The notes beneath the pieces were generated by a model. It searched no databases. It was not told the origin of the DNA and worked only from the letters and a program-made list of their open reading frames with translations. From assembly GCA_017435045.1 (NCBI GenBank), contig JAFSFT010000031.1, positions 15,274 through 79,273 on the forward strand: a DNA stretch of 64,000 bases, read 5' to 3'. The stretch comes from Oscillospiraceae bacterium. Lineage in GTDB: Bacteria > Bacillota > Clostridia > Oscillospirales > Ruminococcaceae. Positions 10,128-57,801 of the stretch are shown piece by piece (positions within the stretch are counted from its first letter, which is position 1; every line of letters begins with the position of its first letter). Made by a program: the position numbers and the translations under genes.

Positions 10128-10396
10128 ATCAGGAAAAGTATCTTGTAGCGTTTCTGAAAAAGAGAGCATTTCCGCGGCTGAAAGAAGTGCAGAAGCATAT
10201 AAGAGAAGTTCCCCTGACAGAAGCTTTGCTGAACAGCATCCGCTAATTAGGCATTGCCGTATTCCTTGCGTTAAAAGGTCTTGAGTGTCCGCATTGCTGT
10301 GCGGAAATTTGGGTGGTACCACGGAGTAAAAGTAAACTTCAAATGGAGTTATCGGTGCTTCGTCCCTTAATTATTTTAAGGGGCGAGGCTTTTTTA
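10128..10396 (+). promoter_or_regulatory. T-box leader (tRNA-Phe-responsive riboswitch) upstream of pheS-pheT
   Basis: Conserved T-box sequence AAATTTGGGTGGTACCACGG at 10304-10323. Terminator hairpin tcgtccctt/aaggggcga followed by CTTTTTT at 10358-10396. AGTA and AGAGA elements in the Stem I region. A UUC triplet at 10209-10211 lies on the 3' side of the putative Stem I internal loop. Located 47 nt upstream of pheS. Confidence 0.85.
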
Positions 10397-10442
10397 TTTA
10401 TACACCTTCGTCCCAATACTAAAAAGAAGGAGAAAACACAAA

Positions 10443-11462
10443 ATGAAACAGCAGCTTGAAAACATTCGCCTTTCATCACTTGAACAGATCGAAAAAGCAG
10501 CTACACCTGCAGAAATTGACGAAATCCGTGTTCGTGTTCTGGGCAAAAAAGGCGAAGTAACAGCCATCCTTAAACAGATGGGCAAACTTTCTGCAGAGGA
10601 AAGACCTGTTATGGGTGCTCTTGCAAACGAAGTAAGAGAAACAGTGGAAAACGCACTGGCAGAAAAACTTGTAAAAATCAAAGCAGAACTTATGGAAAAA
10701 CAGCTGGTAGAGGAAGAAATTGACATCACTCTCCCAGGCAACGAATTTGAAATGGGCAAACGTCACCCAATTCAGCTTGTTCTTGACGAACTCAAGGAAA
10801 TCTTCCTTGGCATGGGCTTCTCCATCGCAGCAGGCCCTGAAGTTGAACTGGACAAATACAACTTCGAAATGCTCAATATGCCAAAATCCCATCCGTCCCG
10901 TGACACACAGGACACATTCTATATCACAGAAAACATCGTTCTGCGCACACAGACTTCCCCTGTGCAGGTAAGAACAATGCTTGATCAGAAACCGCCAATC
11001 CGCATCATTGCACCTGGCCGTGTTTACCGTGCAGACGAAGTTGACGCAACACACAGCCCTCTCTTCCATCAGATTGAAGGTCTTGTTATCGACGAAAACA
11101 TCACAATGGCAGACCTTAAAGGTACACTGGAAGCATTTGTTAAGAATATGTTCGGCCCTGAAACAAAGGTTCGTTTCCGTCCACACCACTTTGCATACAC
11201 AGAACCAAGTGCAGAAATGGATATGACCTGCTTTAAATGCGGCGGCAAGGGCTGCCGTCTGTGCAAAGGCGAAGGCTGGATTGAAATTCTGGGCAGCGGT
11301 ATCGTAAACCCTGTTGTTCTGGAAAGCTGCGGCATCGACAGCACAAAATACTCAGGCTTCGCATTCGGTATGGGTCTTGAAAGACTTACAATGATGCGTT
11401 ACGACATTGACGATATGAGACTCATGTACGAAAACGACATGCGTTTCCTGTCACAGTTCTAA
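10443..11462 (+). CDS. pheS: Phenylalanine--tRNA ligase alpha subunit
   Basis: 339 aa. HPSRDTQDTFYI, RTQTSPVQVRTM, FRPHHFAYTEPSAEMD and GFAFGMGLERLTM are class II motifs typical of PheS. Confidence 0.95.
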   Translation: MKQQLENIRLSSLEQIEKAATPAEIDEIRVRVLGKKGEVTAILKQMGKLSAEERPVMGALANEVRETVENALAEKLVKIKAELMEKQLVEEEIDITLPGNEFEMGKRHPIQLVLDELKEIFLGMGFSIAAGPEVELDKYNFEMLNMPKSHPSRDTQDTFYITENIVLRTQTSPVQVRTMLDQKPPIRIIAPGRVYRADEVDATHSPLFHQIEGLVIDENITMADLKGTLEAFVKNMFGPETKVRFRPHHFAYTEPSAEMDMTCFKCGGKGCRLCKGEGWIEILGSGIVNPVVLESCGIDSTKYSGFAFGMGLERLTMMRYDIDDMRLMYENDMRFLSQF

Positions 11463-11476
11463 GGAGGTAATTTACA

Positions 11477-13864
11477 ATGGATGTATCACTTAACTGGTTA
11501 AAAGAATATGCACCTTTCGACTGCGACATAAAAACTTTTGCCGAAGATATGACAATGTCAGGCTCCAAGGTGGAAGTTTATTCAACAGAAAAAGACAAAA
11601 TCAGAAACGTTGTTGTGGGCAAAGTGGTTTCCCTCGACAAACACCCTAATGCAGACAAGCTTACAGTTTGCGGCATCGACATCGGCAGCGAAGAAATCGT
11701 TATCGTTACAGGTGCAAAAAACCTTACAGTTGGCGACCTTGTTCCTGTTGCTCTTGATAACTCTCTGCTTCCTTGCGGCAAGGAAATCCACGCAGGCGAA
11801 CTCCGCGGCGTAATGAGCAACGGTATGCTCTGTTCCCTTGGCGAACTTGGCCTTACAACACACGACTTCCCAAATGCCATCGAAGACGGCATTATGGTAC
11901 TGGACGAAGAATGGCCTCTTGGCACACCAATCGAAAAGGCACTTGGCATGGAAGACTATATGGTGGAATTTGAAATTACACCAAACCGTCCAGACTGCCT
12001 TTCTGTTCTCGGCCTTGCAAGAGAAGCAAGTGCAACTTTCAGTGTTCCATTCAACGAACCAAAGCCACAGATGCCACAGGGCGAAGATGATATCAACAAC
12101 TATCTCTCCGTAAAAATCAGCGACACAGACCACTGTATGCGTTACGCAGCAGCTATGATTAAAAACGTTAGGGTTAAACCATCCCCACGCTGGCTGCGTG
12201 AAAGACTGCGTGTATGCGGTGTTCGTCCAATCAACAACATCGTTGACATCACAAACTATGTAATGCTGCTTTACGGCCACCCAATGCACGCATTTGACCA
12301 CAAATATGTTAAAGGCAACCTCATTGATGTTCGTCTTGCAAAAACAGGCGAAGAAATCATGACACTTGACGGTGTACAGAGAAAGCTCAACGAAAATATG
12401 CTTGTTATCTCCGACAGCGAAGAACCAATTGCCATCGCGGGTGTAATGGGCGGCGAATATTCCGGCGTTTACGAAGACACAAATATGGTTGTTTTTGAAT
12501 CTGCCTGCTTTGACGGCCCTAAAGTAAGATATGCTTCCCGTCAGCTTGGTCTGCGTACAGAAGCTTCCGGCAAGTTTGAAAAAGGCCTCAACCCTGACAA
12601 CTGCTGGCCGGCTCTGGCAAAAGCTATGGAACTTGTTGTTGAACTTGACGCAGGTGATGTTATCGGCGGCGTAATCGACGTTTATCCATCTCCAAGAAGC
12701 GAAAGAAAAGTACCTCTTAACGCTGACAAAATCAACGAAATCCTCGGCACAGAAATTGCAAAGTCCGATATGGAAAAAACACTTGTTTCCCTCGGCTTCA
12801 AGGTGGAAGATGACACAGTTATCGTGCCGACACACCGCTACGATATTGCAAAAGATGCTGTTACACAGTACAACGACCTTGCAGAAGAAATTGCAAGAAT
12901 GTACGGCTACAACAAGTTGCCTTCCACAATTATGAAAGGCACAGCAACAGCACGCCTTACAGAACGTCAGAAATTTACAAAAGATGTTATCGGCTACCTT
13001 CTCGGCCTCGGTTTCTACGAAATCGAAACATTTTCCTTCTACTCTCCAAAGAACTTTGACCTGCTCAACGTTCCTGCAGATTCTTCCCTCAGAAACCCTG
13101 TTGTTATCTCCAACCCTCTTGGCGAAGATACATCTGTTATGAGAACAACAGCAGTTGCTTCCATGATGAACGTTGTACAGAGAAACTACAACAGCCGTAT
13201 CGAAGCTGTTTCCCTCTTTGAAAATGCAACAGAATACCATGTTGTAGAGGGCGAAGAACTTCCAAAGGAAGTTGAAAAATTCATTATGGCAGTTTACGGA
13301 CAGAACAAGGACTTCTTCTTCCTCAAAGGTGCAGTGGAAAAAATCCTCTGGGCACTCAATATAGAAGATGTTAAGTTTGTACGCAACAGGCAGAACACAA
13401 CATATCATTCGGGCCGCTGTGCAGACGTTGTTGTAAACGGTGCTGTTGTGGCTACAATAGGCGAACTTCACCCTGTAGTGCTTAACAACTACGGCATCAA
13501 GACAAAGGTTTGCGTTTGCGACCTCAACGGCGAAGAACTGTTCAAATATGTTGGCGGTGCAAGACAGTACAAACAGCTGGCAAGATTCCCTGCAGTAACA
13601 CGTGACCTTGCATTTGTATGCGACAAAGCTGTTGCAAACGGCGATATCATCGATATCATCAGGGAAAGCTGCGGCGAATACCTTGAAAGCGTAAAACTCT
13701 TTGACGTTTACACAGGCGACAGACTGGAAGCAGGCAAGAAATCCCTTGCATACAGCCTTGTGCTCCGTGACAAAAACGCAACACTTACAGATGCAGTTGC
13801 AGAACAGTGCACAGGTGCAATTTTGGATAATTTGAGAAAAATTGGTGTATTTTTGAGAACATAG
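11477..13864 (+). CDS. pheT: Phenylalanine--tRNA ligase beta subunit
   Basis: 795 aa. N-terminal tRNA-binding domain (VVGKVVSLDKHPNADKLTVCGIDIG), B3/B4, B5 and FDX-ACB C-terminus (FPAVTRDLAFVCDK...LFDVYTG). Follows pheS by 14 nt. Confidence 0.95.
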   Translation: MDVSLNWLKEYAPFDCDIKTFAEDMTMSGSKVEVYSTEKDKIRNVVVGKVVSLDKHPNADKLTVCGIDIGSEEIVIVTGAKNLTVGDLVPVALDNSLLPCGKEIHAGELRGVMSNGMLCSLGELGLTTHDFPNAIEDGIMVLDEEWPLGTPIEKALGMEDYMVEFEITPNRPDCLSVLGLAREASATFSVPFNEPKPQMPQGEDDINNYLSVKISDTDHCMRYAAAMIKNVRVKPSPRWLRERLRVCGVRPINNIVDITNYVMLLYGHPMHAFDHKYVKGNLIDVRLAKTGEEIMTLDGVQRKLNENMLVISDSEEPIAIAGVMGGEYSGVYEDTNMVVFESACFDGPKVRYASRQLGLRTEASGKFEKGLNPDNCWPALAKAMELVVELDAGDVIGGVIDVYPSPRSERKVPLNADKINEILGTEIAKSDMEKTLVSLGFKVEDDTVIVPTHRYDIAKDAVTQYNDLAEEIARMYGYNKLPSTIMKGTATARLTERQKFTKDVIGYLLGLGFYEIETFSFYSPKNFDLLNVPADSSLRNPVVISNPLGEDTSVMRTTAVASMMNVVQRNYNSRIEAVSLFENATEYHVVEGEELPKEVEKFIMAVYGQNKDFFFLKGAVEKILWALNIEDVKFVRNRQNTTYHSGRCADVVVNGAVVATIGELHPVVLNNYGIKTKVCVCDLNGEELFKYVGGARQYKQLARFPAVTRDLAFVCDKAVANGDIIDIIRESCGEYLESVKLFDVYTGDRLEAGKKSLAYSLVLRDKNATLTDAVAEQCTGAILDNLRKIGVFLRT

Positions 13865-33550: not shown

Positions 33551-36500
33551 ATGTTTTTGAAAAAGAGAAGATTACTGGCGGCAGTTGTTGCCCTGGCAAT
33601 GGTTGTAAATGCATACACACCTGTATTTGCAGCAATTCCGGACAAAGCAGTAACTGACCCCTACAGCATGACAGAAGGCGAACTTGTTGCACACGCATAC
33701 GACGAACTTTCTGAAGCTGAAAAAAACCTGCTTAAAGACGGCGAAGTAACAGTTGGTAAAACATACCCTATTACAAGACCGGCAAGCAGCGATAATCTGG
33801 TAGCAATCAACCAGGAAGCAAAGACAATCAAAGCAGACAGCTTTGAAAATGGCGAGCTTACATGGGTACCGGTATCTGCAGTTCTCACAGAGGACGGCAG
33901 TGCAACAGAAAATGTTGCTCTTGATGCAGAAGGCAACGGCACATTTGCTTCTACAGCAGACAACTATTCTGTAACTGTAAAGTACGCACTGTCTGTTGAT
34001 GTTGACGAAGCTTTGCAGACATCTATGGTTAAAACACCTGGATATCTTAAAGACGCTGTTGACAACCTTAAAGCTGTTGAAGCTAAAGAAACTGTAATCA
34101 AAGAATTCCAGGAAGAAATTCCAACTTTGTACAGTCTCGCAACAGAAGGCGTTCAGACTCCGCTTTCAAAGGTTAAATTCTTCCAGAAGAACAAACAGCC
34201 AATGCAGGAAATTCTGGACCTTAAAGCAGAATACGATGCAAACGGCGGCAAGCTTGATGTATTTAAAATGCTCCAGGATTACAAAGCTATCGGCACAGAC
34301 ACATCTGCAAAACTGGAATACCTTCTGGCAGGCAACAGAGTTGACAACGCAATGGTTTCACTTTATGAAAAAGTGACTGCATTGCAGGAAAACTTTGATG
34401 GTCTTTATGACCTTATCAAAGATCAGGACCTGATTGAAGATGCAACTGACATGGCTACACTTACAACAGCTCACGATGCATTTGCACTTCTTGTTGAAGC
34501 TCTCAGCCCTGTTGCAACAAAAGGCGAATGGGCAATCTTTACAGAAGACCTTGCTCTTGTTGACAATGTTGACACAGACAAACTTGCTGTTTATGTTGAT
34601 GCACTCGATGCACCTACAGGCGGCAGCGTAACAGTTGCAAAAACAATTGAAGTTGAAACAGTTGATGTTGAAGCTGCAGTTAACCTTGTAAATGTTACAA
34701 TCAAAGTTACAGGTAAAAAAGCAAACGGCGTTGCAGGCAGCAAAGACTTCGCAGCTATGCCTGAATACACAGCTGTTGTAAAAGTTTCCAAAGGCACAGC
34801 AAAAGCTGAATACATTGCAAAAGCTGTAGCAACAGGTAAAGAAGCAGAAGCTGTTGCAGCTTGGGGCATTGATGCAGCACACTTTAACGTTGTAACAAAT
34901 GAAGCTGAACTTCCAGCAGCTACTGTTGAAGGCGAAGACCTCGTTTATACAATCGAATATTCACCAAAAGAATATAAAATCACAGAAGATTGGTCCGGCG
35001 GTAAAGAAGTTGACGTACATTACGGTTACATCTACGAATTCCCAGACCACACAAATCCGGAACAGGCTTACATCTATACAGTAAGCGGTAACAAATACGA
35101 ACAGCACGAAACATACACTGTTGAAGGCGATGTAACTGTTACAAGAGTTGCAGACAAAGCTAAATTGCCATTCGCATGGAACAAAATTGTTTCTGACAGC
35201 GTAAGCAGCCTGTCTGCAAAAGAAAAAGCAATCCTTGCAAGTGATGCTATCGACCACGGCTCTATCAGAGTTAAGGTTCCTGCAGCAGATGCTAACAACC
35301 CACTTGCAACTGCTAATATTACAGAAAAAACTGTAACAGCAAAAACATACGATGCAGGCTACGAAAACAGAGTATGGGTACCGGAAACAGTATATGTTGA
35401 CGGTGTAAAAGCAGGCACATTTGCTGAAGATGGCGATGCTTACAAAGCAACATACACAGGCGATGGTACAAAGATTGAAGTTGGCTATGTTCTCGTAGTT
35501 GAAAATGCTGAAGGCGAAGCTATTGCAAACCTTCCACACACACTTTCTGAAGAAGCAAAAGATCAGAAAGAAGCCCTTGATGACCTTTACGGTTACAAAG
35601 GCACAATCGAAAGCAACGTAACATACCTCTCTATCGTTGACCTTGTTATCAACGGCACAAGCTACAACTTTACACAGTCTGTTAAAGATGCTTATGCAAA
35701 CCTTACAAAATATGGTATGACAGGCAGTGGCGACACAGCTAAGATGAACCTTGCAACAGAACTTGGTTACTACCATGACCAGGGTCTTGCATACTACTAC
35801 ACAGGCGGCGATGAAAAAATCGCATACCAGGTAGAACTTCTTGAAGACTTCTGTGTAGAACTTATTGATGACGGCGCTAACGAAGCTGAACTGGTAAAAG
35901 CTCTTGGCAACTACAGCGGTCTGCTTGATGCACAGGGCATGACAGTTGACGAAGTTGTTGGCAAGTTCGACAGCATCCTCGGCTTCCTTGCAGCTTACAA
36001 CCCACCTGCACCAAATGCAGCAATCGACGCAGACGCTAACGTTGCAGGCCTTGCAGCAGCACTTGTAGCAGAAGGCACAACAAGCAGCGGTCACAATGTA
36101 GAAAGACTCTATCTCTCTGCAAAAGTTGCAGCAGAAGTTGCAGGTAAAGCAACAGTAACATTTATCGAATACACAAATGGTGCAGAAACAGGCAGAGAAA
36201 CATATGTAATCGAAGATGCAACAGTTGCTCTTACACAGGATGATTACAATAAAGCAATGGCTAAATGGAATGTGCTTGAAGCAGACAACGACCCCAAACA
36301 TTACACAATGACTGGCGAAGAAGTTGAAGGCACAGCACTTAAAGTTGGCGAAATCCCAGCAAGCTTTGTTACATATATCAGAAACTGGACACCTGTTTCC
36401 TATACAGTAAAAATTGAAGGCGAAACAGACAAAACATTTGTATTCAACGGCAGCAAATATACAATCAATCTTCCTGGGGCACCAGAAGGCAGTGGATTAC

Positions 36501-39500
36501 AGTACATCTATAATGTACCTGGTAAAGGCGAAATCACAGTTAATGAAGGCGATAGTTCTCCTGTGACATATACTGTTGATGAAATGGATGCAGTTTGTGA
36601 TGCTAACCGTGTGGTTACAATCACAAGAACAGCAAAAGATGTTTCCGTAATAGTATTTGATTCTCTTATCAGCACAATGAACAGCAATATGGCTGCAGCA
36701 GCAAATGGCGGCGAACTTGGTTTTGCATTTATGCCATTTGAAAAAGACGGCGACAATGCTGTTGTAATGCGTGTTGCTTACAAAGACGGCCTTGACGTAA
36801 TGGGCATTATGCAGGCACTTGGTACAGCGTTGGCTACTGGCTACTCCAATGCTGAAATAGGCGGTCACACAGTTTGGGATGGTGAGTTAAGCATTCAGGG
36901 CATGACAAATGCATTTATCGACGCAGGCTTTGGTATGGACAGCGTTGATAAAATCATTGATGACAACGGTAATATCATCAACCTCAAGCTTGATAATTAC
37001 ACATACCTCCTCAATGACGTAGAAAACTACGGCGGTGCTACACTTACAAAGGGCGCTCTTGGCGGCGAACTTATCAAAACAACTCTTACATATACAGATA
37101 AGGGTTATGGTGTAACAGATACAGTTGATTTCTACATCACACTTGCAACAGACAAAAACCTTGCAAAAGTTGACAAGGCACTTAACTGGGCAGCTAACTA
37201 TGCAAATATCAACTCTGTTGACGGTAAAGTTCAGATTGACATGAACATTCCGGAAGAAATCTATGCACTCTATATGACATACATGCTTGCAGAACAGGAA
37301 ATCACACTTGACACATTCAATGATGTTGAGCTGGAAACACTCCTCGGCTATGCAAAAGATGTTGCAGAACCTCTTATTGCAGACCTTGCAGCAGGCGAAA
37401 AATATGATGCAGACAGATTCTTTACAGAACTTGTTATTGAAAATACACTCAAACAGTATATGCCAGGCAACACAACAGACCTGTCCAGCTACGGCTCTGT
37501 TATGAAAAAAGGCGTTAAACTTGTTGACAAAGTTCTCACAGAAGTTAAACGTGACAGCGTAACTTACAATGGCGACTCCTGCTCCGTAACACTTACAGTT
37601 GAAGGTGTTAGAGATATGGTGGCAGGCTATGTTGGTGGAAATGGTGAATTTGTAAAAGACTTTATCGTTGATGAACCACTTACAGTTGACGTTAAACTTA
37701 CACTTGCCAACGTAAACACAGTTTACGAAGCATACGTAGTTGAAATCCCTGCAGATATGAAATCCGCAGAAGATATCAAAAACATTACAAAAGAAGATAT
37801 TAAAGGTCTCCTTAAACTTACAAGCGACCTTGAAGCAACCCTTAAAGCAGCTAAAGGTCCTGCACTTGTAGTATTGCTCGAAGATGCAAAACTTGACGAA
37901 GCTGTAACTCTTAACAGCGAATATATCGTTATCGACCTTAACGGTCACACAATCACAGGCGATATGACAGCAGCAGGCACAGCAATTGTTGTTGATGATA
38001 CACTCTCCACAGCAAATGCAGGCGGCGTTAAAGGCACACTCAGCGGCAACTTCAAACTCTTTGCAGGTAACTACACAAGTGTTGAAGATGCAATGATTCC
38101 GGAAGAGTATGAATTTGAAGACGGTTACGTTTCCAACAAATACTACTACCTCAAATCCACAGAAAACGAAGGTAAACTTGAAGAAGTTACAATCGTTCTC
38201 AAAGACGGCGTATTTGACCTTACAAAAGACGACCTCAAGAAAGGTCTTGTAGACACACTTGTTAGCTGTTCTGTTAACGCAGTTGTAAATGTAGCAGCTA
38301 ACCTTTACGGCTACAACACAGCAGAAGTTAACGGCACATGGCTCTACTCCTTCGGTGACAAGAATGTTATCGATATGGTAAATGTTGCTAAGGGCGGCAA
38401 AAATGCAATTATCAACGAAATTCTCGGTTATGTAAACCCAACAGCAGTTGAAGAAATTGCAAACAGCGTTCTTGCTGCATTTGTTGGCGAAAACGCTATC
38501 GTAAACGCTGCAGCAGCAGATACACTCTACTCCTGCAACCTTACACTCTCTCCTTGGGATATCCTCTACTCCATCGAAGGCGGCACATCTGATGATGCAT
38601 ACTTCAATGTAGCATACGCAGGCGACAAGGATAATCAGGTAAATGTAAAACTCTCCTTTGCTATGGAAGAACAGCTCGATGCTCTCCTTACAGCAATCGG
38701 CGAAGTTGTTACAATCAACGCAGCAAAAGTTGACCTCCCTGATGAACTCACATACAGCGGCGGCAAGTCCCTCTCATCCTTCGGCATCAGCCGTGATGAC
38801 TTCGGCGGCGAAATTGATGTAGTTGTTGACTTTACAAAAGATACAAACTACGCAATCATCCTTGCAGCAGTTCTTGCTAATGCAGGCGACAAAGCAGCAT
38901 ACTCCAGTGCTGTAAACAACCTTATCGACAACGGCTCACAGGCAGAACTTAAGAGCCTTATCGACAAAACAACAGTTGCAGGTCTTATCGATGCTCTCGA
39001 AAAAGCAAACGGCAAGTCCTTCGCAGCAATGCTTGGTGCACTCAACATCAATGATGCAGCAAGAGTTGAAGAAATCAAAACTCTTGAAGCTAAATACTCC
39101 GACATTCTCAAAGCAATCTACCTTGTATTTGATTATGTAGACCTTACAGGTCCTGCTACAAAACTTGGCAGCGTTGAAACAGAATTTGGTGTATACTACA
39201 AAGAAGCTAAGAAATACAACATTGATGGTAAAGCAACAGTTAAACTGTTTACAAACAAAGCAGAAATCGTTTCCGTAACACCTGTTATCGATATGGCAGG
39301 CGATGCATTCTACGGCTTCCAGTTTGACGAAAAAGAAAATCTCCTTATCGTTGACACAGTTGTTGAAGGCATTACAGAAGCAGACCTTAAAGCTCTTGTA
39401 CAGTACACAGTAAACGAAGCAACAACAGACCACAGTCTCACAGTTGCAGCAGAAGACCTCAAAGACGGCAAAGTTATCAACGGTGCTAAACTTACAATCA

Positions 39501-39805
39501 GAGCTTGGAACGACATCAGCGAAGATGAAAGAGAATACACAGTTATTGTTCTTGGCGATACAAACTCCAGCGGTAAGATTGAAGTAGGCGACGCAACAAG
39601 AATTGCAAGACACAAACTTGGCCAGCTTACAACACCAATGACAGACGTTCAGCTTCTTGCAGCTGATACAAACATGGACGGCGACATCAACGTTGGCGAC
39701 CCAGTTAAGATCAGTGTAAAATGGATGTGCGCAACAAGTGATGAATACCTTGTAACATATCCTGACGGTTACAACACAGCACTGACAAACAAAATCATTA
39801 AATAA
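33551..39805 (+). CDS. Giant secreted protein (2084 aa) with a C-terminal dockerin
   Basis: Signal peptide MFLKKRRLLAAVVALAMVVNAYTPVFA. Very strongly biased codon usage. Internal IVIDLNGHTITGD module (~37930-37965). Dockerin at the C-terminus. No LPXTG. Confidence 0.9.
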   Translation: MFLKKRRLLAAVVALAMVVNAYTPVFAAIPDKAVTDPYSMTEGELVAHAYDELSEAEKNLLKDGEVTVGKTYPITRPASSDNLVAINQEAKTIKADSFENGELTWVPVSAVLTEDGSATENVALDAEGNGTFASTADNYSVTVKYALSVDVDEALQTSMVKTPGYLKDAVDNLKAVEAKETVIKEFQEEIPTLYSLATEGVQTPLSKVKFFQKNKQPMQEILDLKAEYDANGGKLDVFKMLQDYKAIGTDTSAKLEYLLAGNRVDNAMVSLYEKVTALQENFDGLYDLIKDQDLIEDATDMATLTTAHDAFALLVEALSPVATKGEWAIFTEDLALVDNVDTDKLAVYVDALDAPTGGSVTVAKTIEVETVDVEAAVNLVNVTIKVTGKKANGVAGSKDFAAMPEYTAVVKVSKGTAKAEYIAKAVATGKEAEAVAAWGIDAAHFNVVTNEAELPAATVEGEDLVYTIEYSPKEYKITEDWSGGKEVDVHYGYIYEFPDHTNPEQAYIYTVSGNKYEQHETYTVEGDVTVTRVADKAKLPFAWNKIVSDSVSSLSAKEKAILASDAIDHGSIRVKVPAADANNPLATANITEKTVTAKTYDAGYENRVWVPETVYVDGVKAGTFAEDGDAYKATYTGDGTKIEVGYVLVVENAEGEAIANLPHTLSEEAKDQKEALDDLYGYKGTIESNVTYLSIVDLVINGTSYNFTQSVKDAYANLTKYGMTGSGDTAKMNLATELGYYHDQGLAYYYTGGDEKIAYQVELLEDFCVELIDDGANEAELVKALGNYSGLLDAQGMTVDEVVGKFDSILGFLAAYNPPAPNAAIDADANVAGLAAALVAEGTTSSGHNVERLYLSAKVAAEVAGKATVTFIEYTNGAETGRETYVIEDATVALTQDDYNKAMAKWNVLEADNDPKHYTMTGEEVEGTALKVGEIPASFVTYIRNWTPVSYTVKIEGETDKTFVFNGSKYTINLPGAPEGSGLQYIYNVPGKGEITVNEGDSSPVTYTVDEMDAVCDANRVVTITRTAKDVSVIVFDSLISTMNSNMAAAANGGELGFAFMPFEKDGDNAVVMRVAYKDGLDVMGIMQALGTALATGYSNAEIGGHTVWDGELSIQGMTNAFIDAGFGMDSVDKIIDDNGNIINLKLDNYTYLLNDVENYGGATLTKGALGGELIKTTLTYTDKGYGVTDTVDFYITLATDKNLAKVDKALNWAANYANINSVDGKVQIDMNIPEEIYALYMTYMLAEQEITLDTFNDVELETLLGYAKDVAEPLIADLAAGEKYDADRFFTELVIENTLKQYMPGNTTDLSSYGSVMKKGVKLVDKVLTEVKRDSVTYNGDSCSVTLTVEGVRDMVAGYVGGNGEFVKDFIVDEPLTVDVKLTLANVNTVYEAYVVEIPADMKSAEDIKNITKEDIKGLLKLTSDLEATLKAAKGPALVVLLEDAKLDEAVTLNSEYIVIDLNGHTITGDMTAAGTAIVVDDTLSTANAGGVKGTLSGNFKLFAGNYTSVEDAMIPEEYEFEDGYVSNKYYYLKSTENEGKLEEVTIVLKDGVFDLTKDDLKKGLVDTLVSCSVNAVVNVAANLYGYNTAEVNGTWLYSFGDKNVIDMVNVAKGGKNAIINEILGYVNPTAVEEIANSVLAAFVGENAIVNAAAADTLYSCNLTLSPWDILYSIEGGTSDDAYFNVAYAGDKDNQVNVKLSFAMEEQLDALLTAIGEVVTINAAKVDLPDELTYSGGKSLSSFGISRDDFGGEIDVVVDFTKDTNYAIILAAVLANAGDKAAYSSAVNNLIDNGSQAELKSLIDKTTVAGLIDALEKANGKSFAAMLGALNINDAARVEEIKTLEAKYSDILKAIYLVFDYVDLTGPATKLGSVETEFGVYYKEAKKYNIDGKATVKLFTNKAEIVSVTPVIDMAGDAFYGFQFDEKENLLIVDTVVEGITEADLKALVQYTVNEATTDHSLTVAAEDLKDGKVINGAKLTIRAWNDISEDEREYTVIVLGDTNSSGKIEVGDATRIARHKLGQLTTPMTDVQLLAADTNMDGDINVGDPVKISVKWMCATSDEYLVTYPDGYNTALTNKIIK
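39554..39728 (+). other. Dockerin module (two EF-hand-like Ca-binding repeats) within the giant protein
   Basis: GDTNSSGKIEVGDATRIARHKLG ... ADTNMDGDINVGDPVKISVKWM. Both loops fit D-x-N-x-[DS]-G-x-[IV]-x-x-x-D followed by a helix. Confidence 0.8.
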
Positions 39806-39890: not shown

Positions 39891-41012
39891 ATGTTTAACA
39901 AATTTAAGAAACTTGCAGCAGTTTGTGCAGCACTTACACTTACATTTGTGTTTGCTGCTACACCTGTTTCTGCTGCTACATCTGAAGTAACTGCTAAACC
40001 TGGCGAAACAGTAACAGTTAAACTGTTCAATGCAAAAGGCGAATTTGGCGTTGAAGGCGAAATCAGCTACGACAACAAAGGTCTTTTCTCCGACGTTTCT
40101 GTAGACTCCAAAGGCGGTCTCGGCGGCGAAATGACATCTGATGCTGTTTTCCTTTACAGCGGCGAAGAAGGCACAGGTAGCGTAAAACTTAAAGTTACAG
40201 TAAAATCCGATGCTCAGGCTGGCGACAAATGTGTTATCACATTCCCATACGAAACAGCAGACAGAGACGGTAACATGGTTGATAGCGGTGTAAACACTAT
40301 CACAGTTAAAGTTGAAAAGAAATCCAGCTCCGACGACAAAGATGATGACGATGACAAAACACCATCCACACCATCAGCAACACCAGCTCCTGTAGTAAAA
40401 TCTGACCTTACAGAAGCTAACCGCCTTATCGCAATGGTAGGCGAACTCAACAAAGCTGACTACACAAGCGACAGCTGGAATGCTCTTATCGCAGCATTGA
40501 ACAAAGTTAAAGCTCTTACAGTTTACACACCACAGGCAGAAGTTGACGCAGCAGTTGCAGCATTGCAGGCAGCTATCGACGGCCTTGTAAAAATTGACTA
40601 CACAGCACTTCGTGCAGCAATCGATGCAGCAGAAGCTCTCAAATCCGACTCCGAATTTGCAGCTCTCTGGAACGAATTGCTCGCAGCACTTGCAAACGCA
40701 ATGGCTAACCTCGAAGGCACATCTCAGGAAGAAGTTGACGCTAGCGCAGCAGCACTTGCTGATATCGTAGCTAGAATCCAGGCTTATCTTGCAGGCCTTA
40801 CAGAAGCTCCAGTAGTTCAGGAACCAACAGAAGAACCAGTTGAAGGTTGTGGCGTTCCATTCCACAAACTCCTCCTCATCCTTCTCGTTATCAGTGCAGC
40901 TCTCAACGTAGTTCTTGGCGGCGTTCTCTACAAAAATATGCAGAACAAAAACAAGAAACTTAAAGACGGCACACCAATGGTGAACTACAAAGCATCAGAA
41001 GACGATAAATAA
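39891..41012 (+). CDS. Membrane-anchored cohesin-like protein with helical FIVAR-like repeats
   Basis: Signal peptide ...FVFAATPVSA. Cohesin-like beta-sandwich AKPGETVTVKLFNAKGEFGVEGEISYDNKGLFSDVSV...AVFLYSGEEGTGSVKLKVTVKSDAQAGDKCVITFPYE. Asp/Pro/Thr linker. Helical repeats DYTSDSWNALIAALNKVKAL. C-terminal TM LLLILLVISAALNVVLGGVLY followed by a basic tail. Confidence 0.7.
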   Translation: MFNKFKKLAAVCAALTLTFVFAATPVSAATSEVTAKPGETVTVKLFNAKGEFGVEGEISYDNKGLFSDVSVDSKGGLGGEMTSDAVFLYSGEEGTGSVKLKVTVKSDAQAGDKCVITFPYETADRDGNMVDSGVNTITVKVEKKSSSDDKDDDDDKTPSTPSATPAPVVKSDLTEANRLIAMVGELNKADYTSDSWNALIAALNKVKALTVYTPQAEVDAAVAALQAAIDGLVKIDYTALRAAIDAAEALKSDSEFAALWNELLAALANAMANLEGTSQEEVDASAAALADIVARIQAYLAGLTEAPVVQEPTEEPVEGCGVPFHKLLLILLVISAALNVVLGGVLYKNMQNKNKKLKDGTPMVNYKASEDDK

Positions 41013-47047: not shown

Positions 47048-47935
47048 ATGAAACTGAATAAATTTAACAAAAAAGAAAAACAACAGTTGCGGCAGGCTGC
47101 AGCGGGCGGCAATGTTGCAGAAAATGCCAACGGCGAAGTTATTGTTGTTGAAGAAGAAAAAGGAAGTATCTTAAACACAATTGTTAACGTCTTCCTTGTA
47201 GTTGCTATTGTAATAGCAGTTGTATGTACATATGTGTCATTTGTATCTACATCGGGCAGTGGTGTGCCAAGTATCCTTGGTATAAGACCATTCTCCATCC
47301 AGACAGAATCCATGTATCCTACATTCCTGCCTGGCGACCTTATCATCGATACAGCAGTTGACGACACAAGCGAGCTTGAGGTTGGCGATATCATCACATA
47401 CTGGACAATCATCAACGGCGAACGTGTACTCAACACCCATAGAATTTCAGCTATATATGACGGCGGCGGATACCTCATCTTTGCCACACAGGGTGATAAC
47501 AACCAGTCTGCCGACGCACTTACCGTTCACGAATCGGAGGTTGTAGGTAAGTATAAATTCAGGATACAGGGGTTAGGTAAAGTCTTTGACTATCTGCAGA
47601 CAAGCACAGGCTTCCTTATCGTTGTAGTTGTTCCTGTATTTATCTTCTTTATCTTCCACCTTATCAAGTTCTTCCAGGTGCTCTTTGAATATCAGAACAT
47701 CAAGAACAGAATCGTTTACGAACAGGAAAGAGGCAATGCAGAGGAACTTATTGCTGAACAGAAACGTCAGCAGGAAGAACTTAACCGTCTGCGTGAAGAA
47801 CAGAAAAACAAAGAAAAACAGGAGCTGGAAGAAAAACTGCGTGCTCAGCTTAAAGCTGAAATCCTCGCAGATATGCTCAAGGAAAAAGAAGCTGCTGCAC
47901 CTGCAGAAGCTGCACAAAACGTTGAGGAAGTATAA
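47048..47935 (+). CDS. Signal peptidase I, archaeal/ER (SipW) type, copy 1, with a C-terminal TM and coiled-coil tail
   Basis: 295 aa. Catalytic blocks FSIQTESMYPTFLPGDLII, NTHRISAI and ATQGDNN; compare B. subtilis SipW SGSMEP / THRI / TKGDNN (from memory). Second TM FLIVVVVPVFIFFIFHLIKFF, then EQKRQQEELNRLREEQKNKEKQELEEKLRAQLKAE. Confidence 0.8.
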   Translation: MKLNKFNKKEKQQLRQAAAGGNVAENANGEVIVVEEEKGSILNTIVNVFLVVAIVIAVVCTYVSFVSTSGSGVPSILGIRPFSIQTESMYPTFLPGDLIIDTAVDDTSELEVGDIITYWTIINGERVLNTHRISAIYDGGGYLIFATQGDNNQSADALTVHESEVVGKYKFRIQGLGKVFDYLQTSTGFLIVVVVPVFIFFIFHLIKFFQVLFEYQNIKNRIVYEQERGNAEELIAEQKRQQEELNRLREEQKNKEKQELEEKLRAQLKAEILADMLKEKEAAAPAEAAQNVEEV

Positions 47936-52776: not shown

Positions 52777-53487
52777 ATGACAAAGAAAAAAAACACAAAT
52801 AAATCAATTTCCGGCAAAGCGGTTTCGGTAATGTTTGTTGTTTCTTTTCTGCTTTGTATAACCATAGTGGTGCAGGTACTGTTTAAAGGTTATGCCAGCT
52901 TGGGCGGTTACAGCCTGTTCAGAGTTGTAACCGGCTCTATGGAACCGACAATACCTACAGGCGCATTGCTGTTGTGTGACTCTATGGATATAGAGGATAT
53001 AGTTGAAGGTGACATTGTGTGCTTCCGTTCACCGGAAAGATATATGAAAGGAAGCGTAATTACACACCGTGTATACGATGTGAAAAAGGAAAGCAACGGC
53101 GATATACACCTTTACACCAAGGGAGATGCCAATATTTCCATAGATGGTTATATAGTAAAAGAAGAACACTTTATCGGCAGAGTAAGCTGGTATACAAGAA
53201 AAGACGGATTTTTTATCAACTTTATAGGTCTGCTTTCAAGCAGATACGGCTTTTTGTCCTGTATAGTATTTCCTGTACTTATTGTCAGCAGTATCATTAT
53301 AAGGGATTGCACAAAGAGTATTATGAAGGACCTTGAGCAAGCAAATGCAGAGCTTGATGAAAGAGAAAAGGAATATGTTCCGCAGCAGGATATTTCTGCA
53401 GAGGAATATAAGGAAATGTATGACAGAATCAAAGCCGAATTGTTAGGAGAATTGGCAAGTGAACACAATAGCAAGCTGGAAAAATAG
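52777..53487 (+). CDS. Signal peptidase I, archaeal/ER (SipW) type, copy 2
   Basis: 236 aa. FRVVTGSMEPTIPTGALLL, ITHRVYDV, YTKGDANISIDG. Second TM FLSCIVFPVLIVSSIIIRD, then the charged tail EQANAELDEREKEYVPQQDISAEEYKEMYDRIKAEL. Confidence 0.85.
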   Translation: MTKKKNTNKSISGKAVSVMFVVSFLLCITIVVQVLFKGYASLGGYSLFRVVTGSMEPTIPTGALLLCDSMDIEDIVEGDIVCFRSPERYMKGSVITHRVYDVKKESNGDIHLYTKGDANISIDGYIVKEEHFIGRVSWYTRKDGFFINFIGLLSSRYGFLSCIVFPVLIVSSIIIRDCTKSIMKDLEQANAELDEREKEYVPQQDISAEEYKEMYDRIKAELLGELASEHNSKLEK

Positions 53488-55024
53488 AATAACAGACCGA
53501 TTCAATGGCCTTTCCGATATACAGAAAAAGCTGTATGTCAAAGGTCTCTTTGTGCTGTTTGTGTTTTTCCTTACAATTGTGCTGATTTTTGCTGCAACTG
53601 CTGCATGGTACAACAATATAGCACAGGTTGAAGAACTTGCTTTTGAAATTGATGCCTGGGGTGTAGACAGCACAATAACAATTGAAGACCAGTCTGTTGA
53701 AAAGGCTGCTCCGGGGGATATCGGTACAATTCCGTACAAAATTGACAACGAGGCAGACAGTCTTGTAAATGTTCAGATAAAAGCTGCCAAAAAATATCTG
53801 CCTGAATTTATGCAGAAAAGAATATATTTTTATGTTGACAAAAAGGTAGAAGTTAACGGCGAAACCCTTGAAAAGGCATACATACACGATGACAATGCAT
53901 ACTCCCACGTGCTTCTGGGCGGCCAGAATGTAGATAACACAGGCGATGTTGCATCGGACGGCAAAATCAAGTGGGAATGGGTATATGACCTGCTGGGCTA
54001 TTATGTTGTTATCGAAACAGACGATGATGACATCAGTAAGGAAACAGCATATATCCGACCTGTGCAGTACACCTACGAAGATGCTAAATATGACAACGAC
54101 ACAGGTGCACTTACAAGCATAAAAATAGACGGCAAAGAGGTTACAGCAGAGGACTATATCAAAAACCTGCTTGATACCGACGGCTTTGAAACAGAAGAGT
54201 TCAAAGAGCTGGAAGAAATCAAAACAATACTCAAATTCAAGGATATTTCCGAAGAAATAACAGAAAAGACATACTACGAGGTTTATACCGAAGATGATTA
54301 CGGTGTATACCTGTACATCTGCGATTTCCAGGAAATTGCCGTGAACAATCGTGTTGATACAGACATAGGCAACAAGGAGGAAGCATACCTCCTCGGTGAC
54401 GAAAACTATACAGTTATCCAGATAAGCTGCGGTCAGGCACATGAATATGTGGTTGAAATGGCAGATGCTGCCCAGCTTTATTCAATTATGTCTGATAAAG
54501 AGGCGTATACAAAGTTCCTCACAGACAATGAGCTGGAAGATGTAAAAAGCAATGTTATTTTCCAGCTTACACAGGATATGAATCTGAACACAGTTACAAT
54601 GTTTGACGGTGCAGACTTCATAATCGACCTTAATGGATTTACCCTTTCCTGTGCAGGCCCTGCAAGTGCAGAGCAGGCACAGCACGCAATGTTTACATTG
54701 AAGGAAAAATCCTCACTCAGAATTTACAACGGTAACATTCATCCGGGCAATTACACCCCGTTTGCGGTTACAAACAGCACACTGGTGGCAAAGGAAATCA
54801 CCTTTGACCACAAGACATCAACAGTAAGGGCAGACAATACTGACCAGAAACGCGGCAGCAACATACAGCTTGTGCGCTGTGTATGGGCAGAAGATATGCC
54901 ACAGGATGTTGTGACAATAGAGGAAATAAATGACGAGGGCGAAACAGTCCAGTCCTTTATATGTATAAAAGAAGCAGAATCACAGACAGAAACACAGGCA
55001 GATGAGGATACATCTGCAGAATAG
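53459..55024 (+). CDS. Family member E (521 aa), TasA-like motif AAWYNN; contains an IDLNGxT module
   Basis: GTG start 8 nt after aggagaa, overlapping the SipW-2 3' end by 29 nt. LFVLFVFFLTIVLIFAATAAWYNNIAQVEELAFEIDAWGVD. IIDLNGFTLSCAG...LRIYNGNIHPGNY parallels the giant protein. KRGSNIQLVRCVWAED, then an acidic tail. Confidence 0.6.
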   Translation: MNTIASWKNRITDRFNGLSDIQKKLYVKGLFVLFVFFLTIVLIFAATAAWYNNIAQVEELAFEIDAWGVDSTITIEDQSVEKAAPGDIGTIPYKIDNEADSLVNVQIKAAKKYLPEFMQKRIYFYVDKKVEVNGETLEKAYIHDDNAYSHVLLGGQNVDNTGDVASDGKIKWEWVYDLLGYYVVIETDDDDISKETAYIRPVQYTYEDAKYDNDTGALTSIKIDGKEVTAEDYIKNLLDTDGFETEEFKELEEIKTILKFKDISEEITEKTYYEVYTEDDYGVYLYICDFQEIAVNNRVDTDIGNKEEAYLLGDENYTVIQISCGQAHEYVVEMADAAQLYSIMSDKEAYTKFLTDNELEDVKSNVIFQLTQDMNLNTVTMFDGADFIIDLNGFTLSCAGPASAEQAQHAMFTLKEKSSLRIYNGNIHPGNYTPFAVTNSTLVAKEITFDHKTSTVRADNTDQKRGSNIQLVRCVWAEDMPQDVVTIEEINDEGETVQSFICIKEAESQTETQADEDTSAE

Positions 55025-55032
55025 TAGAAAAG

Positions 55033-55779
55033 ATGAAAAATAGCAGGATAATCAGAAGAAACTTGTTATCTTTGATTGGTGTTTTCATTATGGTTCTCAC
55101 AATGCTCGCCGTTATGGGCGTTGCATGGGCAAGATTCAGCGAAGAAGACAAAAAGATAATGAGAATAGAGACATACCACGACAGACAGTGGTATATCTAC
55201 GGCGGCGACTACAGTGCAGGCGACGCCGATGAAATTCTGCCCGAAACGGTAATTGCCAACGAGGTATTACCGGGCGTTATCGAATGGAACGACAACGAAA
55301 GAAGAATTCGTTTCCATGTTACCAATGGCAAAAAGGCAGACAGCTACGGTAAAGAAGATTTCAGCTACTCAATTTGGGTGCTGGTTACAAATACATTAAA
55401 GCCTACCGACCTTACACTGATGCTGCAGTACTATGAGGGCGACACGGTCAAATCCATCACAGCGGAGCCGGAAAGGATAACCGAGGACAGCCAGCTGTAC
55501 AAGAGCATCGGGGATGGCTGGATTTACAAGTTCTATGTTGATGCCACAGTTACAGACACAACACAGAACAACACCCAAACCCAGACAGAGGTTACAGAGG
55601 GTACAGGCGACACAGGCACAGGCGATACTGCTCAGGGTACAACAACACCGGCAAGAGCAGAGTTTGTGGACACACTCAAGGGCGGACAGCTCTCTATGAA
55701 CACATACGATTTAAGTATCATCGGTCAGGCAGAGGCAGGCTTGCTTGAAATTGAAATTATAGAATATACACAGGAGTAA
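55033..55779 (+). CDS. Family member F (248 aa), TasA-like motif AWARF
   Basis: LLSLIGVFIMVLTMLAVMGVAWARFSEEDKK. Thr/Gly/Asp-rich stretch TQTQTEVTEGTGDTGTGDTAQGTTTP. C-terminal KGGQLSMNTYDLSIIGQAE. Confidence 0.6.
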   Translation: MKNSRIIRRNLLSLIGVFIMVLTMLAVMGVAWARFSEEDKKIMRIETYHDRQWYIYGGDYSAGDADEILPETVIANEVLPGVIEWNDNERRIRFHVTNGKKADSYGKEDFSYSIWVLVTNTLKPTDLTLMLQYYEGDTVKSITAEPERITEDSQLYKSIGDGWIYKFYVDATVTDTTQNNTQTQTEVTEGTGDTGTGDTAQGTTTPARAEFVDTLKGGQLSMNTYDLSIIGQAEAGLLEIEIIEYTQE

Positions 55780-55794: not shown

Positions 55795-57801
55795 GTGCAT
55801 AAAAGAAAAATACATAGTATATATCTGTGCGTACTGTCTTTGGTTACAGCATTTATGATGTGTTATTTTTCTGTAGGCACTTCATACGCCCACTATACAT
55901 ATACAAGAGAAAAACAGATTATCATAAACGGCGACGGAAAGCTGGAATCCAATATCTTTTTTGAGGAAGGCTGTCAGGTTATCCTTAAGGACTGGGACCT
56001 TTCAAAGACCATTCCGCCGCAAAAGGTTACAGCACAGTTTACAGGCAGTGCAAAGGGCAGGCTTGAATATACCGTGCAGGGTGAATATGCACAGTATTTT
56101 ACAGTTTCCGTTAAATATGCAGAAAGCGGAAGTGCTGTGGGCACAAATATAATTGATATCTCTGCAGAAACACCAATCAATATTGAAATTGCACCTGTTA
56201 CACCTGCACTAAGCACACTTGCGGACGATATTTCTCCTGTGGTTGAGTTTAAACTGACAACCTACAATCAGGACGGTACAGCAGGCCGTGTGCTGCAGGG
56301 CAGCTTTGTGTGGAATATCCTTGCTGCCGATGCAGGCAGTTATGCAATAAATGCTGCAAATATGCTTGTGGCATCACGTGCAGTGCCTGTACGGCCAAAA
56401 ATAATGCAGCTTACCCTTGTACAGCAGGACGAACAGAATACTGATGCACCTGCAGAGGGCGGCGCTGAAGGCGACACAAACCCTGACGGTACAGAGGGCG
56501 ATACAGGCTCGGACAACACTACAGGTTCCGAGGGCAATACGGGTACAGGCGATACCACGGGTTCTGATGGTAATACCGGCACAGGTGATACCACAGGCTC
56601 TGACAATACAGGCGACAATACAACTTCGGGTGACGCAGGCACAGACGACACCACAGGCGGCAATACCGATGGTTCCGGCGATACTACAGGCGGCACCACC
56701 GAAACTCCTGAAGGCTCTGATGGCACAGGCGATTCTTCCGGCGAAGGTACAGAAGGCGAAGACGACAAGGATGACGAGGAAGAAGAGGAAACAGGCGATA
56801 ACGTTATAGAGGTTATTCCTGCACAGACAGACGTAGACATTATCCTTTGCAATGTGGAGGATGTGTTTGGCGTTGACGGTAAAATTACCTACACAAACAA
56901 AGGCCTTTTCTCCCGGATTACAGCGGACAACGGTGCAGGCTTCGGCGGCGGCTCCATTACAGAGGATATAGTTTTTATCTACGACAGCAAGGCCAGAAGC
57001 GGCGAAGCAGGCTTAAATGTTGATATTTCACCGGAAGCACAGATGGGGGACGAATGTATAATCACATTCCGTTACCAGACATCTGATATGCAGGGTGTTA
57101 TGTCTGAATATATTGAAGAAAAGATTACCGTAAGGGTAATCACCTCTGAACTTCCAACACTTGAAAATGTTGTGGTTACAGATGGCGAAAAGGTTACAAT
57201 CTACGCCACAGTAAACTATGTTCAGGGCACAAAAAACGGCAAAATCAGCGTAACAGGCGGCCTTGAACCTTATACAAAGGTTGTTACAGGCGACAAGATA
57301 TACATTCTGCCGTACGGCGGCAGCTTCCTGCATCCGCTGCCAACAAGGGATGCACAGACCGTTACATATATGGTGGAATATCCAAAGGATACAATTCCAT
57401 CGGAAGTAACAGTAGAAGCAACAAGCTGCTTCTCGGGCAGCTCGGGCGTAAAGGGCAAACAGACAACAGAGGTTAAGGATATGTCCAACACCACCTTTGC
57501 AGGCACCCAGCCACACACGATTATATTGTCATCCGACAATGCAATAGATTTTGATATTATACCAACCATAACAGAAGCAGGCCCTGTGGTTTCCTACACA
57601 GTGGAATACTACAATGGCGAAAGCTATGTTCCTGTTGATGCAGCAGCATTTAAAGGTGTGATATCACAGGACACAACAAAGCTCAGCCTGTCTACAGGCA
57701 CAAAATACCCAAGAGCGGGTGTTTACAGAATGTGTCTGCAGATGCAGCAGGGCAACAATTTATCAATCGCATACAAAACATTTTTCGTAAACTATAGATA
57801 G
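55795..57801 (+). CDS. Family member G (668 aa): TasA-like termini flanking a G/T/D-rich linker and a cohesin-like module
   Basis: GTG start. LCVLSLVTAFMMCYFSVGTSYAHYTYTREKQ. Low-complexity segment at 56440-56800. The module VFGVDGKITYTNKGLFSRITADNGAGFGGGSITEDIVFIYDSKARSGEAGLNVDISPEAQMGDECIITFRYQ is paralogous to the 39891 protein. C-terminal QQGNNLSIAYKTFFVNYR. Confidence 0.65.
   Translation: MHKRKIHSIYLCVLSLVTAFMMCYFSVGTSYAHYTYTREKQIIINGDGKLESNIFFEEGCQVILKDWDLSKTIPPQKVTAQFTGSAKGRLEYTVQGEYAQYFTVSVKYAESGSAVGTNIIDISAETPINIEIAPVTPALSTLADDISPVVEFKLTTYNQDGTAGRVLQGSFVWNILAADAGSYAINAANMLVASRAVPVRPKIMQLTLVQQDEQNTDAPAEGGAEGDTNPDGTEGDTGSDNTTGSEGNTGTGDTTGSDGNTGTGDTTGSDNTGDNTTSGDAGTDDTTGGNTDGSGDTTGGTTETPEGSDGTGDSSGEGTEGEDDKDDEEEEETGDNVIEVIPAQTDVDIILCNVEDVFGVDGKITYTNKGLFSRITADNGAGFGGGSITEDIVFIYDSKARSGEAGLNVDISPEAQMGDECIITFRYQTSDMQGVMSEYIEEKITVRVITSELPTLENVVVTDGEKVTIYATVNYVQGTKNGKISVTGGLEPYTKVVTGDKIYILPYGGSFLHPLPTRDAQTVTYMVEYPKDTIPSEVTVEATSCFSGSSGVKGKQTTEVKDMSNTTFAGTQPHTIILSSDNAIDFDIIPTITEAGPVVSYTVEYYNGESYVPVDAAAFKGVISQDTTKLSLSTGTKYPRAGVYRMCLQMQQGNNLSIAYKTFFVNYR
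56440..56800 (+). repeat. Low-complexity Gly/Thr/Asp/Glu-coding segment with imperfect tandem repeats
   Basis: Encodes DAPAEGGAEGDTNPDGTEGDTGSDNTTGSEGNTGTGDTTGSDGNTGTGDTTGSDNTGDNTTSGDAGTDDTTGGNTDGSGDTTGG...EGEDDKDDEEEEETGD. The unit GNTGTGDTTGSD appears twice in tandem. Confidence 0.8.

Follow-up and report, generated by a model that had tools for sequence, protein, structure and literature searches.

A second cohesin-like module on a disordered tether in a secreted protein of a putative Oscillospiraceae surface-structure operon

Single-cohesin anchoring scaffoldins, such as ScaE of Ruminococcus flavefaciens (4IU2/4IU3, 8AJY, 2ZF9) and OlpA of A. thermocellus (3UL4), expose a beta-sandwich on the surface beside a cell anchor and are encoded alongside a dockerin-bearing partner. 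We analysed a stretch of 64,000 nucleotides (nt) from an Oscillospiraceae bacterium, called the window below, in which gene G (55795..57801) encodes a protein of 668 amino acids (aa) with an internal copy of a module that is also found in a membrane-anchor protein (the anchor, encoded from position 39891), whose gene lies next to that of a giant protein bearing a dockerin. We propose, with a rough probability of 0.4, that G is a SipW-substrate accessory surface protein that has acquired, on a flexible tether, another copy of the dockerin socket of the operon.

The likeness to the scaffoldins covers the position of the sandwich beside the anchor and the dockerin-bearing partner encoded alongside, and the module was best matched by ScaE in its sequence profile and by OlpA in its fold. 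Nevertheless, the module has ~110 aa against the ~140-190 aa of those cohesins and does not reach the threshold of Pfam Cohesin, the anchor is fixed by a C-terminal transmembrane helix, the cargo would be one giant, non-enzymatic-looking protein instead of glycoside hydrolases, and the copy in G is internal to a protein with a SipW-type motif. Regarding other cohesin-dockerin systems, the dockerin of the giant protein was closest to that of Amy16 from the Ruminococcus bromii amylosome (9QF9; expectation value (E) 2.7e-9), and in the cohesin/FIVAR toxin-complex modules of Clostridium perfringens (2W1N, also among the fold matches of the module) cohesin-type and FIVAR domains occur together, which is known from glycosidases of that species, as they do in the anchor. 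However, both of these systems assemble enzymes.

Regarding filaments, the TasA/TapA/SipW fibres of Bacillus subtilis (8AUR, 5OF1; PMC9674648, PMC10151520) resemble the operon of G, with its further secreted proteins that we call A to E and H, in three respects: a signal peptidase of the archaeal type is encoded in the operon, a motif at the cleavage site is conserved in several secreted proteins, and the presumed mature protein has a conserved N-terminal segment, where TasA has its donor strand. They differ in that G and B/C have no sequence homology to TasA, Peptidase_M73 is missing, the proteins of the operon reach much larger sizes (248-1438 aa), the operon encodes in addition an AAA_5 ATPase, a coiled-coil protein and an HD/EAL protein, and a fibre made by it is hypothetical. 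Donor-strand tip adhesins (FimH, CfaE) and tip pilins are alike in concept, as subunits that join a polymer and display a binding domain, and CfaE-CfaB was actually the top fold match of full-length G, but a generic one (template modelling score (TM) 0.16). Unlike them, G has four sandwiches and a 120-aa disordered spacer, its operon is without chaperone-usher machinery, and its displayed domain would bind a protein tag, the dockerin, and not a host glycan.

The module of G, its paralogue and its insertion

Gene G and the parts of its product were delimited as follows (pLDDT, predicted local distance difference test score; AF2, AlphaFold2):

55795..57801, + strand: gene G, a 668-aa multi-domain secreted protein (evidence: list of open reading frames (ORFs), ribosome-binding site, tight operon spacing, orthologues P0017 and P0018)
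55795..55890, + strand: N-terminal hydrophobic helix and sorting/cleavage motif GTSYA-HY, with the hyphen at the predicted cut (aa 1-32; helix 2-26 in the model)
55891..55983, + strand: N-terminal extension of the presumed mature protein (aa 33-63; HYTYTREKQIIING...ESNIFFEEG)
55984..56328, + strand: N-terminal beta-sandwich (aa 64-178; AF2 strands 76-172, pLDDT 65-80)
56440..56799, + strand: disordered Gly/Thr/Asp/Glu spacer (aa 216-335, 120 residues; from composition and model)
56800..57144, + strand: cohesin-like beta-sandwich module (aa 336-450; pLDDT 91-98 in the full-length model)
57157..57798, + strand: two C-terminal beta-sandwiches (aa 455-565 and 575-668; AF2 pLDDT 55-80; the end reads ...FFVNYR)

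The gene starts with GTG, has a ribosome-binding site (AAGGGGGG) 7-8 nt upstream, and is separated by 15 nt from the upstream gene and by 18 nt from the downstream one.

Residues 342-448 of G and residues 37-141 of the anchor were 43% identical over 107 aa (BLASTP E 5e-22), and a profile hidden Markov model (HMM) of the module found exactly two copies in the window, one in each of these proteins. By this comparison the two modules are true paralogues, as a preliminary description of the window had already read from two pairs of blocks, correctly placed. The similarity goes far beyond chance, and an origin by chance or from low complexity was rejected. When 1.84 billion representative proteins were searched exhaustively with the profile, a module family of 120 proteins was collected at E<=1e-3, with a near-universal layout in which the module occupies residues ~25-145 of a protein of ~370-400 aa, as in the anchor. 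A single internal copy was seen only in G's own cluster (P0017) and in P0018, aside from a weak partial match in P0128 (1379 aa; residues 250-344, E 1.6e-4). Word-indexed searches returned nothing with the module alone and, with a spacer-less G, only P0017.

Two orthologues of G were compared with it. P0017 is 97% identical to G, while P0018 (542 aa) is only 39% identical, has the same N-terminal motif and C-terminus, and carries the module at residues 203-322 behind a spacer of only ~25 residues; its contig is syntenic, with a downstream gene 45% identical to H. Furthermore, a contig from a metagenome-assembled genome (MAG) in GTDB (L007, "Eubacteriales bacterium") has the gene order SipW, AAA, coiled-coil, C, SipW, D, E, G, H, and its D is 29% identical to that of the window (E 5e-46), its E protein matches at E 1e-6 and its H is 33% identical. 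The protein in the G position there has 401 aa, the motif GAYARY and a last ~100 residues homologous to G (E 5e-5; ...KVFFIDYR). The module HMM did not match it even at E<=10, and it lacks the spacer too. That the module and the spacer of G are an insertion relative to this positional orthologue is thus well supported by the sequence comparison, and the preliminary description had rightly spoken of inserts.

In a neighbour-joining tree the two G modules were sisters, nested among the anchor modules, a pattern consistent with a single duplication of the module out of an anchor-type gene and its later retention. The module was 44% identical between G and P0018, against 39% for the whole proteins. 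The ratio of nonsynonymous to synonymous substitution rates (dN/dS) against P0017 was 0.21 for the module, 0.10 for aa 1-215, 0.30 for the C-terminal domains and 0.66 for the spacer, all from small counts. These values support the view that the module has been retained under constraint in a lineage as distant as P0018. Scans with the G alignment of GTDB genomes, JGI metagenomes and IMG/VR were all empty, and so were tblastn searches of the PLSDB plasmids with G and H as queries and a JGI scan with the H alignment; the H alignment found one locus in GTDB, L007.

Regarding the rest of G, Gly makes up 26% of the spacer, Thr 24%, Asp 18% and Glu 12%. Within it a 36-bp unit is repeated in tandem 2.3 times, and it was modelled as disordered (pLDDT ~30; disorder at aa 182-332 in the full-length model), so that the low-complexity stretch of ~120 residues described before was found again at nt 56440-56799. 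The motif GTSYAHYTYT is present in G and conserved in its orthologues. The C-terminal strand ...KTFFVNYR is likewise present and conserved in the orthologues, but, contrary to the preliminary description, it is not common to the other proteins of the cluster with a SipW-type motif. The best-conserved part of G is formed by the first ~30 residues past the predicted cleavage site: stretches of aa 33-63 were the most conserved between G and P0018 and were chosen as patterns by the locus finder. In the monomer model this extension is unpacked, at pLDDT 28-39 (unpacked aa 27-63, below 40).

The full-length AF2 model had a mean pLDDT of 64. Outside the module only 3 orthologues contributed to it, and the confidence in the N- and C-terminal domains is accordingly moderate (pLDDT 55-80). 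In repeated MAFFT alignments the L007 protein was pulled into the columns of the module, and that protein was left out of the alignment for structure prediction. In the model G is a string of separate beta-sandwich domains, and therefore the module is, as modelled, one bead among others and not an insert within a single TasA-type fold, which is where the preliminary description had placed it. Foldseek matched full-length G to generic tandem immunoglobulin (Ig) strings at TM 0.1-0.2 (CfaE-CfaB, PrgB and the S-layer protein SbsB). Searches of G against Pfam, NCBIfam and PDB sequences gave no match, the N-terminal sandwich matched no family or PDB sequence when it was considered separately, and single-sequence searches of the PDB with G and the anchor returned only low-complexity or FIVAR noise.

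Two other kinds of export signal were considered for G. A type IV pilin-like class III signal was rejected because the motif lies C-terminal to the hydrophobic helix, and a lipoprotein signal because the invariant Cys23 is outside any lipobox.

Fold of the module and its presumed dockerin partner

A structure model of the module, which had been proposed as a check of the cohesin idea, was built from a 55-sequence alignment and is confident (pLDDT 92, predicted TM 0.82), all-beta, with about 9 strands. Its best fold match in the PDB by Foldseek was a type I cohesin, OlpA (3ul4_A; E 3.4e-4, TM 0.63, root-mean-square deviation 3.8 over 139 columns), and the top 50 contained no fewer than 8 other cohesin entries (5nrm, 5nrk, 5lxv, 2w1n, 2zf9, 4uyp, 4n2o, 3kcp). 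The module profile searched against PDB sequences gave as best matches the ScaE cohesins of R. flavefaciens, 8ajy_A and 4iu2_A, in two collinear segments at a marginal E of ~0.004, and 2zf9 was also matched (E 0.28). In Pfam, Cohesin was the family matched by most members, namely 5 of the 55, all of them below the threshold (best E 0.0033). These lines are independent and each of them is weak, and they point together to a cohesin-type fold; from sequence and model, the module is probably a compact, divergent sandwich of that type. The label "cohesin-like" is plausible given the confident model, the top fold match and the ScaE profile matches, but no member of the family reaches the Pfam Cohesin threshold.

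The proteins with which the module would work are encoded at the upstream end of the operon:

33551-39805, + strand: gene of the giant protein, 2084 aa
39551..39730, + strand: dockerin at the C-terminus of the giant protein (two Ca-loop repeats, profile matches)
39891..41012, + strand: membrane-anchor protein, 373 aa, with the commonest architecture of the module family

The anchor consists, in this order, of a Sec signal, the module (nt 39999-40313), an acidic/Pro-Thr linker, a FIVAR region and a C-terminal transmembrane helix. No LPXTG is visible upstream of this helix and the Pfam scan gave no S-layer homology (SLH) domain. As a separate observation, E311, P312, C320 and H325 of the segment upstream of the helix (aa 311-345, window 40821-40925) are invariant in 9 homologues, and they may form an unrecognised C-terminal sorting or processing signal instead of a plain tail anchor.

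The last ~90 residues of the giant protein contain two Ca-loop-like repeats, DTNSSGKIEVGD and DTNMDGDINVGD, which are 36 aa apart and conserved in the orthologues, and the giant protein is the only one in the window with such a repeat pair. On Pfam Dockerin_1 it scored 22.7 bits against a cut-off of 22.9. A profile of the C-terminus made from five sequences had 33 PDB matches, 30 of them solved dockerins, with R. bromii Amy16 as the best; 1OHZ_B and 8ajy_B were also matched, the latter being the partner of 8ajy_A, the best sequence match of the module. Judged by its repeats and profile matches, the dockerin is genuine and of type I, as the preliminary description had assumed. We also noticed that the first Ca loop (aa 2005-2016, nt 39563-39598) has Ser at its fifth position (DTNSSG), where Asp or Asn is usual. 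This Ser is retained in L002 and not in L001, L005 and L006, and it may affect the Ca2+ dependence or the binding mode.

In at least 4 diverged loci (L001, L002/L003, L005 and L006), whose anchors are only 35-50% identical, the giant gene immediately precedes the anchor gene. Among the arguments from context for the module as the socket of this dockerin, such conserved linkage is the strongest, and we think it most likely that the anchor module tethers the neighbouring giant protein to the membrane by its dockerin.

SipW-type signals and the competing explanations

The operon encodes two signal peptidases, which bear on how G would be exported:

47048..47935, + strand: SipW/archaeal-type signal peptidase I, copy 1 (TIGR02228, 88.8 bits; cut-off 51.85)
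52777..53487, + strand: SipW/archaeal-type signal peptidase I, copy 2 (TIGR02228, 86.5 bits; cut-off 51.85)

A motif after the hydrophobic helix, formed by a small residue, any residue, an aromatic one and Ala, then W/R/H and an aromatic or aliphatic residue, was found in 7 of 100 window ORFs, which are precisely A, B, C, D, E, G and H; since it was defined post hoc from this locus, only its specificity is informative. Past the cleavage Ala (Thr in B) there are two sub-classes, W followed by F/L/V/Y in A, B, C, D and H and R/H followed by F/Y in E and G. Together with the two SipW paralogues, this could mean two classes of substrates. We observed the same two sub-classes in L007; in the window the N-termini are at 43734, 45929, 51386, 53459, 55033, 55795 and 57820. 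No NCBIfam signal-peptide model, SipW-cognate models included, matched the signal of G at E<=0.1.

In our proposal, G would be a secreted multi-domain beta-sandwich accessory protein of a surface-structure operon conserved in Oscillospiraceae/Eubacteriales. Before its split from the P0018 lineage it would have gained a copy of the ~110-residue N-terminal module of the anchor, which came to sit behind a disordered, acidic Gly/Thr/Asp spacer. The anchor module would most likely keep the giant protein at the membrane by its dockerin, and the module of G would most likely offer this dockerin, or one related to it, a second place to dock farther out; the giant protein, or another dockerin protein, would then be held away from the membrane anchor.

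Several results weigh against this proposal. No module sequence reaches the gathering score of Pfam Cohesin (PF00963), and G and the anchor have no Cohesin match at all. An hhalign comparison of the module profile with type I cohesins of CipA gave a non-significant probability of 4.5%, although with a narrow CipA profile of three sequences (checked against 1ANU, 1AOH and 3KCP). Chaperone-usher chaperones and pilins scored near the cohesins in Foldseek (TM 0.45-0.55), and the ~110 aa of the module compare with ~140-150 aa in classical cohesins. Furthermore, the module of G is nominally closest to the anchor of its own genome (42%), with an excess over the sister at 20 versus 11 sites that is not significant as a test of co-evolution (p=0.15). 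Finally, because only two lineages among the 1.84 billion proteins have the architecture of G, the arrangement could be a tolerated domain shuffle. The absence of an above-threshold Cohesin match, the CipA result, the near-equal score of chaperone-usher and other Ig folds, the co-evolution test and the fact that the rest of G is made of uncharacterised sandwiches would all fit a generic shuffling of beta-sandwiches, in which the module is an Ig-like adhesive or spacer domain without dockerin binding and the cohesin for the dockerin is encoded elsewhere. We regard this as less likely than our proposal but still as a serious rival. Against it, the three independent signals, weak as they are, favour cohesins over any other family, the anchor with the module always lies directly downstream of the dockerin-bearing giant gene in spite of the low identity of the anchors, and the layout of the anchor, with signal peptide, module, linker and cell anchor, is that of an anchoring scaffoldin.

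The preliminary description had gone further and seen in G a TasA-like subunit that might work as a scaffoldin on a fibre. In the full version of this reading, SipW would cleave G after SYA, the N-terminal strand would enter or cap a TasA-type donor-strand fibre, and the module would recruit the giant protein. The evidence for cohesin and dockerin in our proposal applies here too, and the two peptidase genes within the operon, a post-helix motif limited to seven operon proteins, and a segment of ~30 residues after the cleavage site, better conserved than the rest of G and left unpacked in its monomer model, speak for it. Donor-strand pilin strings (CfaE-CfaB 3f83, SafDAA 5y9h) are also among the full-length fold matches, at very low TM, and the conserved N-terminal segment may be compatible with a TasA-like donor strand. 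Nevertheless, hhalign of G against TasA (a query 100% identical to 8AUR_A) gave a probability of 0.05%, G has no Pfam Peptidase_M73 match, no TasA was among the top 50 fold matches of full-length G, and at TM 0.1-0.2 these matches are generic Ig strings anyway. The description of G as TasA-like was therefore not borne out. Its assignment to a family with A, B, C and H did not hold either: in an all-against-all BLAST only A, B, C and H formed a paralogue family, with G, E and D unlinked, and hhalign of G against A/H and against B/C gave a probability of 0.2% with only the region of the cleavage motif aligned. Actually, A, B, C and H themselves showed no relationship in sequence to TasA or a solved structure, as the A/H and B/C profiles found nothing in the PDB and B/C found nothing in TasA by hhalign. 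Polymerisation of the operon proteins has no support in these data, and a SipW-cognate signal match in NCBIfam is missing. We consider the fibre improbable for these reasons, and its complete version, a SipW-processed, donor-strand-type Gram-positive filament subunit whose miniature cohesin on a tether recruits the 2084-residue dockerin-tagged protein, if anything a little more doubtful.

G might also stay attached to the cell by an uncleaved helix or by its N-terminal domain, with the spacer carrying the module and the C-terminal domains across the wall, which would make it a second cell-bound anchor for dockerin cargo. The long hydrophobic helix at aa 2-26, a spacer of a length and composition like those of wall-spanning linkers, the membrane-bound paralogue and the gain of a similar spacer by E in the window lineage agree with such an adaptor. 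However, a conserved small-x-Ala motif of the cleavage type stands directly after the helix, the operon has two dedicated SipW-type peptidases, and the spacer of P0018 has only ~25 aa, so that we find this adaptor very unlikely.

To our knowledge, no known non-cellulosomal cohesin-dockerin system puts a cohesin on a SipW-dependent or filament subunit. Searches of the literature found neither such a cohesin nor this type of operon described. If the module binds a dockerin, it represents a compact cohesin-type family of ~110 residues and ~120 representative clusters that Pfam does not annotate, gut/rumen-type Clostridia would use this family to display giant surface proteins, and the logic of cohesin and dockerin would reach further beyond polysaccharide degradation. 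G would then show a socket that was moved by domain duplication from the membrane anchor to another extracellular component of the same machine. If the fibre were also real, a plug and socket in the manner of cellulosomes would have merged with fibre assembly in the manner of TasA, in an operon family without a characterised member. In our proposal G would extend the known non-cellulosomal display by cohesin and dockerin; the observation is solid, the insertion is well supported and the fibre is unproven.

Neighbouring genes and minor observations

The operon spans ~30 kb on the + strand (window 33551-63916) in the order giant dockerin protein, anchor, HD/EAL, p374, A, B, SipW, AAA_5, coiled-coil protein, C, SipW, D, E, G, H and a BspA-type leucine-rich repeat (LRR) protein. 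This order is held across diverged MAG contigs (L001, L002, L005, L006, L007 and L008), and the whole looks like an uncharacterised surface-structure system. None of A, B, C, D, E, G and H had a Pfam, NCBIfam or PDB sequence match. With its two SipW-type peptidases, seven family-less motif proteins, AAA ATPase and HD/EAL protein, the operon is arguably a larger question than G, and G offers a testable handle on it in the form of a defined domain pair.

Protein E (55033-55779) has a Thr/Gly/Asp/Gln low-complexity insert at aa ~172-207 (TVTDTTQNNTQTQTEVTEGTGDTGTGDTAQGTTTPA), which is missing from the 171-aa E-like protein of L007. Such spacers seem to have spread through several operon proteins in the lineage of the window.

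Regarding the surroundings, Rep3, ParB and ParA genes of plasmid type precede the giant gene in L001 (1-3035), and the locus of the window is flanked by chromosomal genes, namely pheT, an M18 aminopeptidase, an ABC solute-binding protein and a sulfatase (compared span 8584-33052). Some relatives may carry a mobile or plasmid-borne form of the locus.

A weak similarity around 'IDLNGxT...' was found between D (aa 330-433, 54446-54757) and the giant protein (aa 1395-1509, 37733-38077; BLAST E 0.2), and the two may share a domain. The D-like protein of L007 extends into repeated Gly/Asn/Ile/Ser segments which, judged by eye, are possibly beta-helix-like.

In L008, a near-identical contig of the same species, the LRR gene is followed by an ORF of more than 3585 aa (10332-13713), just beyond the point where the window ends. 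This is a second giant protein, whose C-terminus lies outside the visible sequence.

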